Below, one piece after another: positions 147 to 56,253 of a stretch of 64,000 nt of DNA. The notes beneath the pieces were generated by a model, which worked only from the letters and a program-made list of their open reading frames with translations, had not been told where the DNA came from and searched no databases. A program made the position numbers and the translations under genes. The first letter of the stretch is position 1, and every line of letters begins with the position of its first letter. Origin of the DNA: Acidobacteriota bacterium (lineage in GTDB: Bacteria > Acidobacteriota > UBA6911 > RPQK01 > JAJDTT01); the NCBI GenBank assembly GCA_965217775.1, contig CBDCJH010000002.1, forward strand, positions 5,760,001 to 5,824,000, read 5' to 3'.

Positions 147-217
147 CAGTCCGTGGTGAAAGTCCCGCGAGCACCGAGACCGTTCCTGCGCCCGCCGGAC
201 AAGGCGCGATGAGGGAG
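147..217 (+). mobile_element. MITE-like repeat copy 1, left part (interrupted by the IS110 element)
   Basis: CAGTCCGTGGTGAAAGTC...GATGAGGGAG matches the 5' part of the intact copy at 8256-8413; preceded by CTAG (143-146). Confidence 0.9.
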
Positions 218-272
218 TATCCATGTTGCAAATCTTCCGATTTTCCAGGGATTGTTTCCTCCCTGGTTAGAC

Positions 273-1226
273 TCATCCGACCGCCCTGACTGGCCGCGGT
301 GTCCACACCCGATCCTGGCTCAGCAGGACGTTGGCCAAAATCACCATCTTGCGCATGATCGCCGTGAGCGCCACCTTCGGCGCCTTGCCCCGCTCACGCA
401 GCTGGCGATACTTCTGGATGTAGTCCGGATTGTGTCGAATGGCGGTGAGGGCGGCCATATACAGCATCCGCCGCACCCGATGCCGGCCCCCGCGGATGAA
501 GCGACGTCCCTTCCAGGTCCCCGACTCCCGAGCCACCGGCGCCAGACCGGCCAAGCTGGCCACCGCCTTGGAGTCGATCTGTCCCAGTTCCGGCATCAGA
601 GAGAGCAGGCCCGCGACCGTGACCGGACCCATTCCCGGAATCGAAGTCAGCACTTCGGCTTTGCGCGCCAGCGCCGGATCGGCTTTCAGCAACTTGCGGA
701 ACTCGCCGTCCAGGGCCCGGATCTGGCGCTCAATCTGAGCCAGCCGCTGTCGCAAATGCCGCTTCACCATCGGGTGGCGCGCGTGGTGGCTCCGGTTGCG
801 AGCCGCCGTCCGATCCTTCACCAGCCCGTCCCGCGCCGAGATCAGTTCCTCCAACTGGCGCTGCGTGGGCGAGGACACGTCCACACGCCGCAACGGGAGC
901 GCCTCCCCCATCCGGGCCAGGATCCGGGCATCCACCGCGTCGGTCTTGGCCTCCTGGCCCAGCGCCTGCGCGAACCGCCGCGCCCGCATCGCGTTGACCC
1001 GAGCCAGCGGCAACCGAGCGGCCAGAGCTTCCTCCATCGCCCGGTGCCAGGGGCCCGTGGACTCATACACCACGCACCGGACCTCCGGTCCGATCCAGCG
1101 GGCCAGGGCCTGGAACCCTGCCGTGTCGTTGGGGAACCGCTTCGACCGTCCCGAAGGCCACTCGTGCACGTCCAAATGCGCCTTCGAGATGTCCACACCC
1201 ACCGTCTTTGAGGTATCTTGAGTCAT
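273..1226 (-). CDS. IS110 family transposase/recombinase (DEDD_Tnp_IS110 + Transposase_20)
   Basis: Motifs VGVDISK, YESTG and KTDAVDA give the DEDD tetrad. C-terminal SIPGMG and GLAPVARESG contain the catalytic Ser. AGGAGG RBS upstream. Confidence 0.97.
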   Translation of the reverse strand: MTQDTSKTVGVDISKAHLDVHEWPSGRSKRFPNDTAGFQALARWIGPEVRCVVYESTGPWHRAMEEALAARLPLARVNAMRARRFAQALGQEAKTDAVDARILARMGEALPLRRVDVSSPTQRQLEELISARDGLVKDRTAARNRSHHARHPMVKRHLRQRLAQIERQIRALDGEFRKLLKADPALARKAEVLTSIPGMGPVTVAGLLSLMPELGQIDSKAVASLAGLAPVARESGTWKGRRFIRGGRHRVRRMLYMAALTAIRHNPDYIQKYRQLRERGKAPKVALTAIMRKMVILANVLLSQDRVWTPRPVRAVG

Positions 1227-1235
1227 CTTTCCTTC

Positions 1236-1390
1236 CTCCTGTGCTTGTCGTGCGAGCCTTGACGCTCACGTATCCATTCAGGACGTTGGGAAAGACGGTG
1301 GCGGCCCCACTCCCTCCCGGCCCTTGACGGCCGGCATACATAACGGCCCGACCACCGCCGCCGAGGCGCCTCTGGCCAGAGGCGCCTCGG
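1236..1390 (-). ncRNA. Predicted IS110 bridge RNA (5' hairpin, target-binding loop, donor-binding loop)
   Basis: Perfect 30-bp palindrome at 1361-1390. Two internal loops are each capped by a GUCAAG hairpin (1323-1328, 1258-1263). Guides match the target (1334-1339, 1310-1316) and the donor (1270-1277, 1244-1249). Ends are approximate. Confidence 0.82.
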
Positions 1391-1660
1391 ATGGATCCTC
1401 CCAAAAGATCCCAACCCGTATCGGAATAACCCACCAGAAATCATGCCGGCGCCACCGAGCCAAGCCTGGACGATGGCTGGGTCACGGCCCTGCGCCTGCT
1501 GTCGCCACTGGCGGCGTTGACGGGGGCAGGGGGGGCCGGCCCCCCCTGAGACCCCCCGGATGCAAAGAGACACATACCCACTTGAAATCCCTGAAACGAG
1601 AGCCCCGAGGCCCCCTCGTCACCCGGAACCCGCCTGTGGAAAATCAAAGATTTCCCACAG

Positions 1661-1805
1661 GGTGCTCCCTTTTTGCTGACACCACAATCTGTACCCCCCC
1701 AAGAAGAAAGACAGACAAGAAATAACAGACAAGGGTGCTCCCTTTTTGCTGACACCACAATCTGTACCCCCCAAGAAGAAAGACAGACAAGAAATAACAG
1801 ACAAG
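1661..1805. repeat. Tandem duplication of a 73/72-bp unit at the IS left end, containing four ACAGACAAG copies
   Basis: GGTGCTCCCTTTTTGCTGACACCACAATCTGTAC(n)AAGAAGAAAGACAGACAAGAAATAACAGACAAG at 1661-1733 and 1734-1805; the units differ by one C in the C-run. Confidence 0.95.
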
Positions 1806-1892
1806 CATACCGGGAGTATGCGACCGAGTCGCAACGCAGTCCGCCGGGATGCAGGGACGGTCGAATGCCGTGGCGACTTTTGCCACGGGCTG
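1806..1892 (+). mobile_element. MITE-like repeat copy 1, right part
   Basis: CATACCGGGAGTATG...GACTTTTGCCACGGGCTG followed by CTAG (1893-1896), which duplicates 143-146. The two halves sum to 158 bp. Confidence 0.9.
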
Positions 1893-2312
1893 CTAGGTAA
1901 ACGTCGGAATCGCGAGCCCTTCGGATCGTCCGGCGGCGCTGAGCCGACGGTCCAGGGTTGCAAGAGGCAAATGCAAGCGGACCGCCAGTTCGAGATACGT
2001 GGCGTCGTAGACGGAGAGTCGGTGCTCCGTCGCCAGTTCAAGCGCAACATTCCAGACGCGGGACGTGGAAATCGGATCGATTTCGATCGGTAGTGCATCG
2101 AGAATTGCGTGAATTTGGCGCCAATCGCCCCTGGTGATCCGGCCCCGACGAGTCGCGATGAGGAGCACGTTTCCAACTTCGACGGGCCAGAGGGACGGAA
2201 CGAACGCCCTCCCCTCGATCAGCGATTCCCTTAGCTGATTCGTCGATTCCGTGGCCTCGTCGGGAAAGACCCACGCCATGGTCACCGAGCAATCGAGTAC
2301 GAACGCCATCAA
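1893..2312 (-). CDS. vapC: Type II toxin-antitoxin VapC family PIN-domain toxin
   Basis: FVLDCSV N-terminus, WPVEVGN, LSVYDATYLELA and LATLDRRL PIN motifs. Confidence 0.92.
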   Translation of the reverse strand: MMAFVLDCSVTMAWVFPDEATESTNQLRESLIEGRAFVPSLWPVEVGNVLLIATRRGRITRGDWRQIHAILDALPIEIDPISTSRVWNVALELATEHRLSVYDATYLELAVRLHLPLATLDRRLSAAGRSEGLAIPTFT

Positions 2313-8255: not shown

Positions 8256-8413
8256 CAGTCCGTGGTGAAAGTCGCGCGAGCACCGAGACCGTTCCTGCGC
8301 CCGCCGGACAAGGCGCGATGAGGGAGCATACCGGGAGTATGTGACCGAATCGCAACGCAGTCCGCCGGGATGCAGGGACGGTCGAATGCCGCGACGACTT
8401 TTGCCACGGGCTG
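8256..8413 (+). mobile_element. MITE-like repeat copy 2 (intact, 158 bp, TCAA target duplication)
   Basis: Imperfect terminal inverted repeats CAGTCCGTGGTGAAAGTC / GACTTTTGCCACGGGCTG, flanked by TCAA at 8252-8255 and 8414-8417. Confidence 0.92.
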
Positions 8414-41239: not shown

Positions 41240-41397
41240 CAGTCCGTGGTGAAAGTCCCGCGAGCACCGAGACCGTTCCTGCGCCCGCCGGACAAGGCGC
41301 GATTCGGGTGCATACCGGGAGTATGTGCCCGAATCGCAACGCCGTCCGCCGGGATGCAGGGACGGTCGAATGCCGTGATGACTTTTGCCACGGGCTG
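41240..41397 (+). mobile_element. MITE-like repeat copy 3 (158 bp, GTAG target duplication)
   Basis: Same terminal inverted repeats; GTAG at 41236-41239 and 41398-41401. Confidence 0.92.
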
Positions 41398-41412
41398 GTA
41401 GAGGATAGATTC

Positions 41413-52260: not shown

Positions 52261-53238
52261 ATGGACAGGGCCGCTGCCATGGAAACGCCGTCCGGCAAGG
52301 CCGCGACGGATGAGAACTTCCCCGTCGGCTCCTGGTTGTTGCCGGCGCACCTGCGACCCCATATCGCGACCTTCTATGCCTATGCCCGGGCGATCGACGA
52401 TATCGCCGACAATCCTGACCTGGGTCCGGACGAAAAGGTCGAGCGACTGCTCGGCTTCGCCAAAGCGGTGAGTGGCGTCGAAACAGCAGATCCCGCCTTT
52501 CGAAAAGCACACGAGATCCGCCGGAGCCTGGTTGCGACGCAGATAACGCATCGTCATTGCGTCGATCTGACGCGTGCGTTCATACAGGATGCGACCAAAC
52601 TGCGCTACGCCGACTGGAACGATCTGCTCGGCTACTGCGTCCTCTCGGCGGCGCCCGTGGGCCGGTACCTGGTCGATCTGCATGGTGAGTCGAAAGCTGC
52701 GTATCCGGCCAGCGATGCTCTTTGCAACGCTCTCCAGATCCTCAATCACCTGCAGGACTGCGGGGATGACTACAGGGCGTTGAACCGCGTCTATCTGCCC
52801 CAGAACTGGATGGCGGCAGCGGGCGCCGGGGTCGAGGCGCTCGGCCGGAAGCATTCAACGCCGGCACTCAGGCAAGTGTTGGATCGGTGCCTCGATGCAA
52901 CCGATAAGCTGTTGGAGTCGGCTGATCGATTGCCGATCCGGTTTCGCAACCTTCGTTTCGCCATGGAGACGGCCGCGATCTTCGCCATCGCCAAGAAGCT
53001 CGGTGCTGAGCTGCGCGGGCGGGACCCCCTGGCGGAACGAGTCGTGCTGACCAAGGTGCAGTATGCGGCCTGCATCCTACGCGGAGTCGGTCGGGTTCTG
53101 GACCGAAGGGTCTGGCGGCGGCGCCATCCGGCGGCGGCGCGCCCCTTGCAGTCCGTAGTGAAAGTCACGCGAGCACGGAGACCGGTCCTGCGCCCGCCGG
53201 ACAAGGCGCAACGGACGGAGCATACCGGGAGTCTGTGA
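52261..53238 (+). CDS. hpnC: Squalene synthase HpnC (C-terminus extended into a MITE)
   Basis: ENFPVGS.LLP, YAYAR..DDIAD, YC..SAAPVGR and ALQILNHLQD motifs. Confidence 0.92.
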   Translation: MDRAAAMETPSGKAATDENFPVGSWLLPAHLRPHIATFYAYARAIDDIADNPDLGPDEKVERLLGFAKAVSGVETADPAFRKAHEIRRSLVATQITHRHCVDLTRAFIQDATKLRYADWNDLLGYCVLSAAPVGRYLVDLHGESKAAYPASDALCNALQILNHLQDCGDDYRALNRVYLPQNWMAAAGAGVEALGRKHSTPALRQVLDRCLDATDKLLESADRLPIRFRNLRFAMETAAIFAIAKKLGAELRGRDPLAERVVLTKVQYAACILRGVGRVLDRRVWRRRHPAAARPLQSVVKVTRARRPVLRPPDKAQRTEHTGSL

Positions 53239-53307
53239 CCGAGTCGCAACGCAGGCCGCCGGGATGCAGGGACGGTCGAATGCCGTGACGACTCGCACCA
53301 CGGGCTG
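53149..53307 (+). mobile_element. MITE-like repeat copy 4 (diverged; overlaps hpnC 3' end)
   Basis: CAGTCCGTAGTGAAAGTC...GACTCGCACCACGGGCTG; flanks CTTG/CTAC are imperfect. Confidence 0.88.
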
Positions 53308-53341
53308 CTACCAAACCCATTAGCGCGTTGGCGCCGCATCG

Positions 53342-55754: not shown

Positions 55755-56093
55755 ATGGAGGTTCAAGCCGAGCGGGAAGACGGGACCTTGATCGCACGGG
55801 CGGAGGGTCGTGTCGACGGCAACAATGCCCGCGAGCTCGAGGAGGCGCTCAATGCGGCAATCGGAGAAAACGATCGTCTCCTGATCATGGACTTGCAGGA
55901 TCTCTCCTACATCAGCAGCGCCGGCCTTCGAGTTTTTCTGATGATTGCCAAGAAGTTCCAGAGACGAGACGGGAAATTCGTGGTCTGCTCGCTCGCCGAA
56001 ACCATCAGCGAGGTTTTTGAGATCAGTGGTTTCAATAAGATCATCCCAACTCATACCTCCCGGGCCGACGCACTCGCCAGGCACGGTGGTTAG
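55755..56093 (+). CDS. STAS domain anti-sigma factor antagonist, copy 2
   Basis: 112 aa, colinear paralog of 49944-50282; LSYISSAGLR. Confidence 0.93.
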   Translation: MEVQAEREDGTLIARAEGRVDGNNARELEEALNAAIGENDRLLIMDLQDLSYISSAGLRVFLMIAKKFQRRDGKFVVCSLAETISEVFEISGFNKIIPTHTSRADALARHGG

Positions 56094-56253
56094 CAGCCCG
56101 TGGCAAAAGTCGTCACGGCATTCGACCGTCCCTGCATCGTGCGCGGACTGCGTTGCTATCGGCTCACATACTCCCGGTATGCTCCCTCCGTTGCGCCTTG
56201 TCCGGCGGGCGCAGGAACGGTCTCGGTGCTCGCGCGACTTTCACCACGGACTG
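56094..56253 (-). mobile_element. MITE-like repeat copy 5 (inverted)
   Basis: Reverse complement of the repeat; flanks TTAG/TCAG; the left flank includes the STAS stop codon. Confidence 0.9.

Follow-up and report, generated by a model that had tools for sequence, protein, structure and literature searches.

A predicted bridge RNA whose two loops match the target and the donor of its own IS110-group element in an Acidobacteriota bacterium

Near the start of a 64,000-nucleotide (nt) stretch of an Acidobacteriota genome (assembly GCA_965217775.1, contig CBDCJH010000002.1, positions 5,760,001 to 5,824,000; hereafter, the window) lies an IS110-group element, which is read on the minus strand. Its left boundary is GTATG-CT(1805-1804)-TGTCTG and its right boundary ATGGATA-CT(217-216)-CCCTC. 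The question raised by this locus is whether the structured region that directly precedes the transposase gene (1390-1242, minus strand) is a bridge RNA, with one loop specifying the genomic target and the other the joined ends of the element. A first-pass annotation, made from the letters of the window, had proposed that it is. As judged from sequence, the region is a canonical IS110-group bridge RNA, and every defining feature that can be tested in this way was found. We consider it very probable that 1390-1242 is a functional-type bridge RNA of an intact element and that it would work as in IS621. Since bridge RNAs had already been predicted in 85.7% of the IS110 elements in ISfinder (Durrant et al., PMC11208160), this is a known kind rather than a new principle. 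The principle itself was set by IS621 in 2024 and the window element adds little to it; its value is that of an unusually clean natural case.

The junctions were fixed by comparing copies of the element with empty sites. The source genome (6.43 megabases (Mb), two contigs) has four copies, their bodies 100% identical, all inserted at one position of a repeat of ~160 base pairs (bp) and in repeat copies with differing flanking bases. All four have CT at both junctions, empty sites have one CT, and there are no terminal inverted repeats. Comparison of the reconstructed empty site with the genome by BLAST produced 270 rows, of which 222 span the junction and represent uninterrupted copies of the repeat. 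Because empty sites have one CT and occupied sites have one per side, the reconstructed target (GTATG-CT-CCCTC) and donor (ATGGATA-CT-TGTC) are real. The exact 12-mer target, GTATGCTCCCTC, occurs 89 times in the genome, compared to 0.87 occurrences expected from base composition. The commonest form of the site among the 222 repeat copies (87 copies) is ...GGTATGCACCCGA..., which is without the CT core, GCACCCGA replacing the CT-core site; another form, ...GGTATGCTCCCTC-ATCGC, was found in 36 of the 222, and there are further CCCTC variants. Both substrates can thus be read from a single genome that has 89 free exact targets. The features of the element are as follows.

216..1805, minus strand: complete IS110-group element with the CT core of both junctions, 1588 bp (1516 bp in the two copies without the terminal duplication), delimited by the copies and by an unsupervised decode
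1804..1805, minus strand: CT core of the left junction (GTATG-CT-TGTCTG), from sequence; empty sites have a single CT
216..217, minus strand: CT core of the right junction (ATGGATA-CT-CCCTC), from sequence and copy comparison
1661..1805, minus strand: left terminus present twice in tandem, as units of 72 nt (1805-1734) and 73 nt (1733-1661), both of which begin with CT-TGTCTG
273..1226, minus strand: IS110 recombinase of 317 amino acids (aa) with predicted catalytic residues D12, E55, D96, D99 and S235, from Pfam and from alignment to IS621 (8wt6) and ISCro4 (9t56)
218..272, minus strand: right end, 55 bp; a circle-junction promoter, proposed on the basis of PMC11208158 and PMC11208160, may have its -35 box in TTGCAA (231-226)
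1804..1897, minus strand: left part of the interrupted ~160-bp target repeat, with the hairpin GCATAC-TCCCG-GTATGC ending at the core C
150..217, minus strand: right part of the interrupted repeat, from comparison of copies and empty sites

The left end is 577 bp long (505 bp unduplicated), compared to 55 bp for the right end, and the RNA region is located in the left end, upstream of the gene. The terminal duplication is present in two of the four copies (the window copy and L002). Each length variant was found at two sites; therefore, both variants moved or were copied. The inner boundary of the duplication, GCACC-CT-TGTCTG, retains the right-donor half-site only, and the duplication is reminiscent of non-coding units, repeated in tandem and with donor matches on one side, that a preprint describes (10.64898/2026.08.14.744561).

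Within 1390-1242 a 5′ hairpin is followed by two internal loops, the components of which are listed below.

1361..1390, minus strand: predicted bridge-RNA 5′ stem-loop, perfectly palindromic over 30 nt, from sequence and fold; relatives have a hairpin there with a different sequence
1293..1360, minus strand: predicted target-binding loop module, consisting of outer stem, left guide, inner hairpin, right guide, handshake and outer stem, from the fold; the outer stem has compensatory changes
1334..1339, minus strand: left target guide GUAUGC, identical to 1810-1805 (GTATG plus core C); the homologous position tracks the left flank in relatives
1310..1316, minus strand: right target guide GAGGGAG, reverse complement of CTCCCTC at 217-211, with covariation
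1308..1309, minus strand: target-loop handshake dinucleotide UG, which would pair (U:A, G.T) with donor positions 7 and 6 by the rule in PMC11208158
1270..1277, minus strand: left donor guide AUGGAUAC, identical to 224-217 (right-end terminus ATGGATA plus core C)
1244..1249, minus strand: right donor guide GACAAG, reverse complement of CTTGTC at 1805-1800 (CT plus TGTC, the left-end terminus)
1242..1243, minus strand: donor-loop handshake dinucleotide CA, which would pair (C:G, A:T) with target positions 7 and 6
1231..1240, minus strand: Shine-Dalgarno-like AGGAGGAAGG, in the 3′ strand of the stem that closes the donor loop, where the UCCUG/CAGGA pairs are conserved

According to the rule published for IS110 elements, each loop's 5′ side has the same sequence as the left arm plus the core (top strand) and its 3′ side is complementary to the core plus the right arm (again top strand), loop 1 reading the target and loop 2 the donor (PMC11208160). 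All four guides in the window obey this polarity as published for IS621. Both inner hairpins have the same GUCAAG loop, on stems CCGGCC/GGCCGG (1334-1317) and GUGAGC/GCUCGC (1269-1252). The left target guide is short (6 nt) and pairs with the core C only, without the core T. In IS621 the two nucleotides located 3′ of each right guide are handshake guides, which pair after strand exchange with positions 7 and 6 of the other DNA molecule (PMC11208158). In the window element the donor-loop CA and target G7/T6 are Watson-Crick partners, and the target-loop UG faces donor A7/T6 as U:A and G.T. The latter dinucleotide could also wobble-pair with its cognate target G7 and T6, a kind of cognate pairing that is inhibitory in IS621 (PMC11208158).

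The minus strand of 1400-1227 folds into a 13-bp 5′ hairpin and then two internal loops, of which the first is closed by a long stem and has an inner hairpin and the second is built alike, with a minimum free energy of -91 kcal/mol and a z score of -5.05; none of 200 shuffled sequences was as stable. The guides were then scored as the highest-scoring combination of matches in a required order (left target in sense, right target in antisense, left donor in sense and right donor in antisense) within the 162-nt RNA region, with the junctions fixed by the copy and empty-site evidence. The observed score was 27 (6+7+8+6, at RNA positions 52, 75, 114 and 142), while none of 5000 dinucleotide shuffles reached it, the highest scoring 20. 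A blind decoder was also run, to which neither the loops nor the element ends were supplied and which searches 1.1 kilobases (kb) upstream and 0.7 kb downstream. It recovered exactly the four guides of the first-pass annotation and the independently known ends; with the junctions free in this manner, one of 300 shuffles reached 27. All strings and coordinates of that annotation were correct when checked against the minus strand. Its reconstructed target and donor agree with the four copies at the same repeat position and the 222 uninterrupted ones, the polarity rule and both handshake dinucleotides fit the IS621-type architecture that it had described, and the two closed loops that it had placed after the 5′ hairpin are those of the fold.

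The structure is conserved among relatives. An alignment of 11 of them gave a consensus with the outer stem of the target loop, the closing stem of the donor loop and the donor inner hairpin, and compensatory changes, on both sides of the pair, were found at 9 of 28 pairs. When pairs were counted, 93.5% of the cells were paired, compared to 33-48% when the partners were slid by one to three columns. The observed covariation score was reached in none of 500 column shuffles, a figure that is not a probability since the sequences are related. A covariance model built from this alignment (R1) matched ten places in the source genome: the four elements of the window type, four paralogs (L007-L010) and two weak matches (G000:C2:4368220-4368391 and C2:5910839-5910950; 62 and 33 bits), which are probably decayed or partial elements. 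The second of these adjoins a left terminus of the paralog type. The model matched 8 of 76 genomes of the order; excluding the source genome, these are six of the eight further genomes of the genus and the single genome of one other genus. A search of 1-2500 against Rfam in E-value mode gave just three matches, all sub-threshold and unrelated, and in gathering mode the whole window gave none; Rfam 15 appears to be without a model that reaches this RNA.

If the loops are guides, their sequences must follow the insertion sites from one element to another. A scan of species-representative genomes identified an 88%-identical element in an Acidobacteriota metagenome-assembled genome (L021, L022), with the same repeat target and the same guides, and a protein search of 401 genomes of the phylum gave matches at E <= 1e-30 in 24, the source genome included. 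Among the relatives is a subfamily with a common donor loop (AUGGAUAC...GACAAG) and common termini (ATGGATA-CT-TGTCTG), consisting of the window element, L021/L022, the paralogs L007-L010 of the source genome (55% aa identity), L030, L032/L055, L031, L054 and L033. Across it, eight different target loops stand on one invariant donor module, and each left guide reproduces its own left flank. The pairs of guide and flank are as follows.

Left guide GUAUGC: left flank GTATG-CT
Left guide GUCGCCGCU: left flank GTCGCCG-CT
Left guide ACCGCCGC: left flank ACCGCCG-CT
Left guide ACCGACGC: left flank ACCGACG-CT
Left guide GACGCCGCU: left flank GACGCCG-CT
Left guide CACGCCGCU: left flank CACGCCG-CT
Left guide GGUCGCU: left flank GGTCG-CT
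Right guide of L030, CTCCAGAC: flank CT-CCAGAC
Right guides of L033 and L054, also following the flank: CTCCCGT and CTCCCAT, respectively

The left and right matches to the element's own flanks have lengths of 8+8 in L030, 6+7 in L033, 8+5 in L031 and 6+7 in the window. In a swap matrix of contiguous matches, which comprised the ten loci with both flanks, the element's own loop or an identical one was the best in eight. The distant relatives L036, L042, L052 and L040 have other left donor guides (ACAGUCGC, ACAGUUGC, GACAGUAUC), which match their own right ends. Loci for which decoding gave the right junction plausibly and the left one ambiguously or wrongly were kept out of the evidence (L034, L035, L037-L041, L049, L050, L057, L058 and L025-L028), as were L043 and L045, which have little downstream sequence and yielded no junction decode. 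Most relatives insert just after a hairpin.

The distribution of changes along the RNA points in the same direction. While the RNA segments of the window element and L021 are 92-98% identical and the gene is 89% identical at the nucleotide level, the co-resident paralogs L008 and L010 share only 25 of 38 target-loop positions (66%), compared to 47 of 48 in the 5′ part, 78 of 79 in the 3′ part and 933 of 948 in the gene (98-99%). Since the loop diverges while the rest of the RNA and the gene stay conserved, the target loop behaves as a hypervariable cassette on a conserved scaffold, which is how a retargeting module would be expected to look.

The sole long open reading frame (ORF) of the element, 1226-273, has the two domains of the family, PF01548 (N-terminal RuvC-like DEDD, E 1.5e-19) and PF02371 (C-terminal Tnp, E 8.1e-21), both above the curated cut-offs. 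Over residues 8-301, the best solved relatives in phmmer searches are ISCro4 (9t56, E 6.2e-28) and IS621 (8wt6, E 8e-28). Residues D12, E55, D96, D99 and S235-G236 align to D11, E60, D102, D105 and S241-G242 of IS621 in the chain numbering of 8wt6, which is offset by two from that of the paper; the aligned catalytic residues were shown to be essential in IS621 (IS621 paper). The recombinase therefore looks intact, as the first-pass annotation had stated. That annotation had also called it compact and its right guides, of 6-7 nt, long; both descriptions were overstated, as the published ranges for the family are about 300-460 aa for the protein and 4-7 nt for right guides (PMC11208160). Its proposal that guides should track the flanks of homologous elements was borne out by the eight target-loop types and by the eight loci of ten at which the own loop was best. 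It had further suggested that the system may be reprogrammable, a property that homology would predict.

Taken as a mechanism, the DEDD/Ser recombinase would bind the bridge RNA, the first loop of which would pair with both strands of the genomic target GTATG-CT-CCCTC inside the ~160-bp repeat and the second with the joined element ends ATGGATA-CT-TGTC. The two DNA molecules would then be exchanged at the CT core, aided by the handshake dinucleotides UG and CA. RNA binding, circle formation and strand exchange are expected here by homology. The sole sign of activity, an indirect one, is the presence of four copies with identical bodies at different sites.

Several observations weigh against this mechanism. 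The first is the short left target guide of 6 nt. The second is that L008 and L009, two of the ten loci of the swap matrix, fit the right guide of a sister better than their own under contiguous scoring; a discontinuous pairing of the right guide they carry, in which a U bulges out, is conceivable, and in IS621 the right donor guide does pair with flipped-out bases (PMC11208158). The third comes from genome G260, where the L054-type element was inserted six times independently; the left flank reads (A/G)CCGCCG-CT in every case and the right-flank match is full in just two (CTCCCAT in two, CTCCCA in one, CTCCC in one and CTCC in two), a pattern that looks like the one-sided "half-match" tolerance described for IS621 in a preprint (10.64898/2026.08.31.748434). 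The remaining ones concern expression. In IS621 the promoter is rebuilt across the circle junction and a 191-bp left end holds a 177-nt RNA (PMC11208158, PMC11208160), lengths that imply about 14 nt between the left terminus and the RNA; in the window element the RNA starts 413 nt from the left terminus (341 nt unduplicated). The TTGCAA hexamer lies 8 nt from the right terminus in the window and is conserved in relatives at a distance of 8-9 nt, and in the circle it would stand 17 nt before TATTTC of the left end, so that a promoter may form across the junction; TATTTC is nonetheless a weak -10 box, with the RNA 341-413 nt downstream. A promoter scan of 150-1900 detected no sigma-70-like site, with the proviso that sigma-70 rules may not suit this phylum. 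Finally, a 15-mer of the circle junction had no match in the assembly, and no circle junction was seen among the contigs of the RNA libraries described below, which come from a single study and may contain DNA.

These libraries are four metatranscriptome runs of one study that hold the element. Contigs cover 1242-1397 in all four, in three of them as separate contigs of 151-156 nt; such contigs give no RNA ends, strand or level. The short contigs (1242-1397, 1243-1397 and 1252-1396) have depths of 25-42, compared to 2.4-12.7 for contigs of the gene, although depth is no measure of RNA level. Positions 1588-1773 were uncovered in the four runs, and nothing was concluded from uncovered parts. 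The coverage is compatible with expression of the bridge RNA and is no proof of it.

The distance between terminus and RNA is due to an additional segment in the left end.

1391..1660, minus strand: non-coding leader, conserved, that separates the bridge RNA from the left terminus; its alignment with L021 shows single-base indels, and L030/L055 contain a relic that also aligns

The leader is specific to elements of the window type, while the paralogs, which have a left end of 180 nt, are without it and keep an IS621-like layout. Its fold (1732-1391) is no better than those of shuffled sequences (z -1.54). A leader peptide was considered and rejected because the ORFs are broken by single-base indels relative to L021.

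The leader suggests the alternative that survives best, namely that the bridge RNA is genuine and the element is now silent: with the RNA separated from the junction promoter, the copies would have spread earlier or through the machinery of another element in trans. The 341-413-nt leader that the paralogs lack and the outcome of the scan for an internal sigma-70-like promoter are in agreement with this, and paralogs with identical donor ends and an identical donor loop make help in trans conceivable. The four identical bodies, with both length variants at two sites each, argue instead for recent movement, the ORF and the catalytic residues are intact, and the contigs over 1242-1397 in four of four runs are compatible with expression, without proving it. 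We consider a silent element very improbable.

A second alternative is that the structured region acts just as a 5′ leader, regulating how the transposase is translated (for example by masking its ribosome-binding site), and that the matches have no guide role. The RNA abuts the start codon, and the closing stem of the second loop, which is conserved, includes a Shine-Dalgarno-like AGGAGG (1240-1235). This explanation nevertheless leaves unexplained the four ordered matches to independently defined junctions, the covariation with the flanks across eight target-loop types and a loop of 66% identity amid surroundings of 98-99%. As a replacement for the guide function it is highly improbable; the region may control translation in addition to guiding. 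The third explanation, in which nested insertions or duplicated ends left the internal matches behind as relics that record DNA history, with no RNA guides, is scarcely credible: end duplication does occur (the 72/73-nt tandem left terminus in two of four copies) and L030/L055 contain decayed relics of an internal element, but the matches are of 6-8 nt, they lie in the single-stranded sides of two conserved internal loops with one sense and one antisense match per pair exactly as in the IS621 rule, those on the target side correspond to host DNA outside the element, which end duplication cannot yield, and the loops of homologous elements do follow their flanks.

With a guiding bridge RNA as the preferred reading, the window element can be compared with known systems. 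It shares with IS621 of E. coli (PMC11208160, PMC11208158; PDB 8wt6) the two Pfam domains and the aligned D/E/D/D/S residues, an RNA in the 3′ part of the left end that abuts the gene, the order of 5′ stem-loop, target loop and donor loop, the polarity of the four guides, the CT core, handshake dinucleotides that pair with the non-cognate DNA, and a repeat element as natural target. The proteins are distant (the phmmer E of 8e-28 given above), and the target and donor-left sequences differ. The left target guide has 9 nt in IS621 and 6 nt in the window, where it pairs with the first core base only; the wild-type right target guide of IS621 pairs over 4 nt, compared to contiguous right guides of 6-7 nt; and the left end of IS621 has 191 bp, compared to 505-577 bp with a leader of 341-413 nt before the RNA. 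These departures from IS621 are of degree. The best-scoring solved relative, the ISCro4 transposase (PDB 9t56), was likened by its protein alone. ISPpu10 from Pseudomonas putida, as described in a preprint (10.64898/2026.03.19.712850), inserts into many identical copies of one intergenic repeat, the 5′ part of which is a stem-loop. Similarly, the left target arm in the window is the 3′ arm of the hairpin GCATAC-TCCCG-GTATGC; the ISPpu10 target is, however, a short repetitive extragenic palindrome, whereas the repeat in the window has ~160 bp and inverted-repeat-like ends. The paralogous elements L007-L010 have the same donor loop and termini (ATGGATA-CT-TGTCTG) and the same RNA scaffold and are found by the same covariance model; they differ in their target loops and targets, in the 180-nt left end without leader and in a longer right end. 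In the IS1111 group the RNA lies in the right end, whereas in the window element it lies in the left one, as in the IS110 group. Our literature search found no paper naming both bridge RNA and Acidobacteriota; the supplementary tables of PMC11208160 may already list this element or its relatives.

The close relatives constitute a natural guide-swap series on a constant donor module. They could serve as a compact orthologue set for studying the evolution of the target loop and the minimal length of the left guide when the target has a hairpin, as well as the way in which duplications and chimeric elements arise from half-matches and shared donor ends. A broader proposal, which we put forward tentatively and consider possible but doubtful, is that in this acidobacterial genus one donor module is common to at least eight target modules, that the target loop may be an exchangeable cassette and that elements use each other's RNAs; separately, the lineage with the leader may make its RNA from integrated copies. 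If true, cross-use of RNAs would explain the insertions of L008 and L009 that fit a sister loop better, as well as chimeras such as L030/L055, in which the decayed remains of a window-type element are joined to an intact paralog and both move as a unit. The 270-nt leader would then provide bridge RNA from integrated copies, through an internal promoter or processing, beyond what the circle alone makes.

In L030 and L055 (genomes G200 and G088) the left end, of 820-830 nt, is composite: a leader of the window type comes with a donor loop of that type, now decayed, with remnants of a transposase and with a right-end/left-end junction that has also decayed, after which stand an intact bridge RNA and gene of the paralog type. 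This arrangement looks like two elements with the same donor ends that fused and now move as one. The paralogs L007-L010 are located at about 1.16, 2.68, 2.74 and 4.66 Mb of G000:C2 and have two different target loops among them. The L007/L010 subtype is 3.4 kb long, with two extra ORFs between the transposase and the right end that encode a 446-aa protein matching no Pfam family and a DUF6788 protein of 141 aa; in this subtype, agreement between right guide and right flanks is limited to CTCC.

The target repeat had no Rfam match in gathering mode over the whole window. Its ends are inverted-repeat-like (CCGTGGnnAAAGTC), at least 222 genomic copies span the site, and intact copies within the window are found at about 8259-8413, 41243-41401, 53152-53310 and 56091-56250. 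The repeat parts that flank the element have a very high summed depth in the RNA-library contigs, which is no measure of expression. Beside the interrupted repeat, 1893-2566 on the minus strand encodes a type II toxin-antitoxin pair, in which a Phd/YefM antitoxin (85 aa, PF02604) overlaps a PIN-domain protein (139 aa, PF01850), and the repeat starts within a few bases of the stop codon of the PIN gene.

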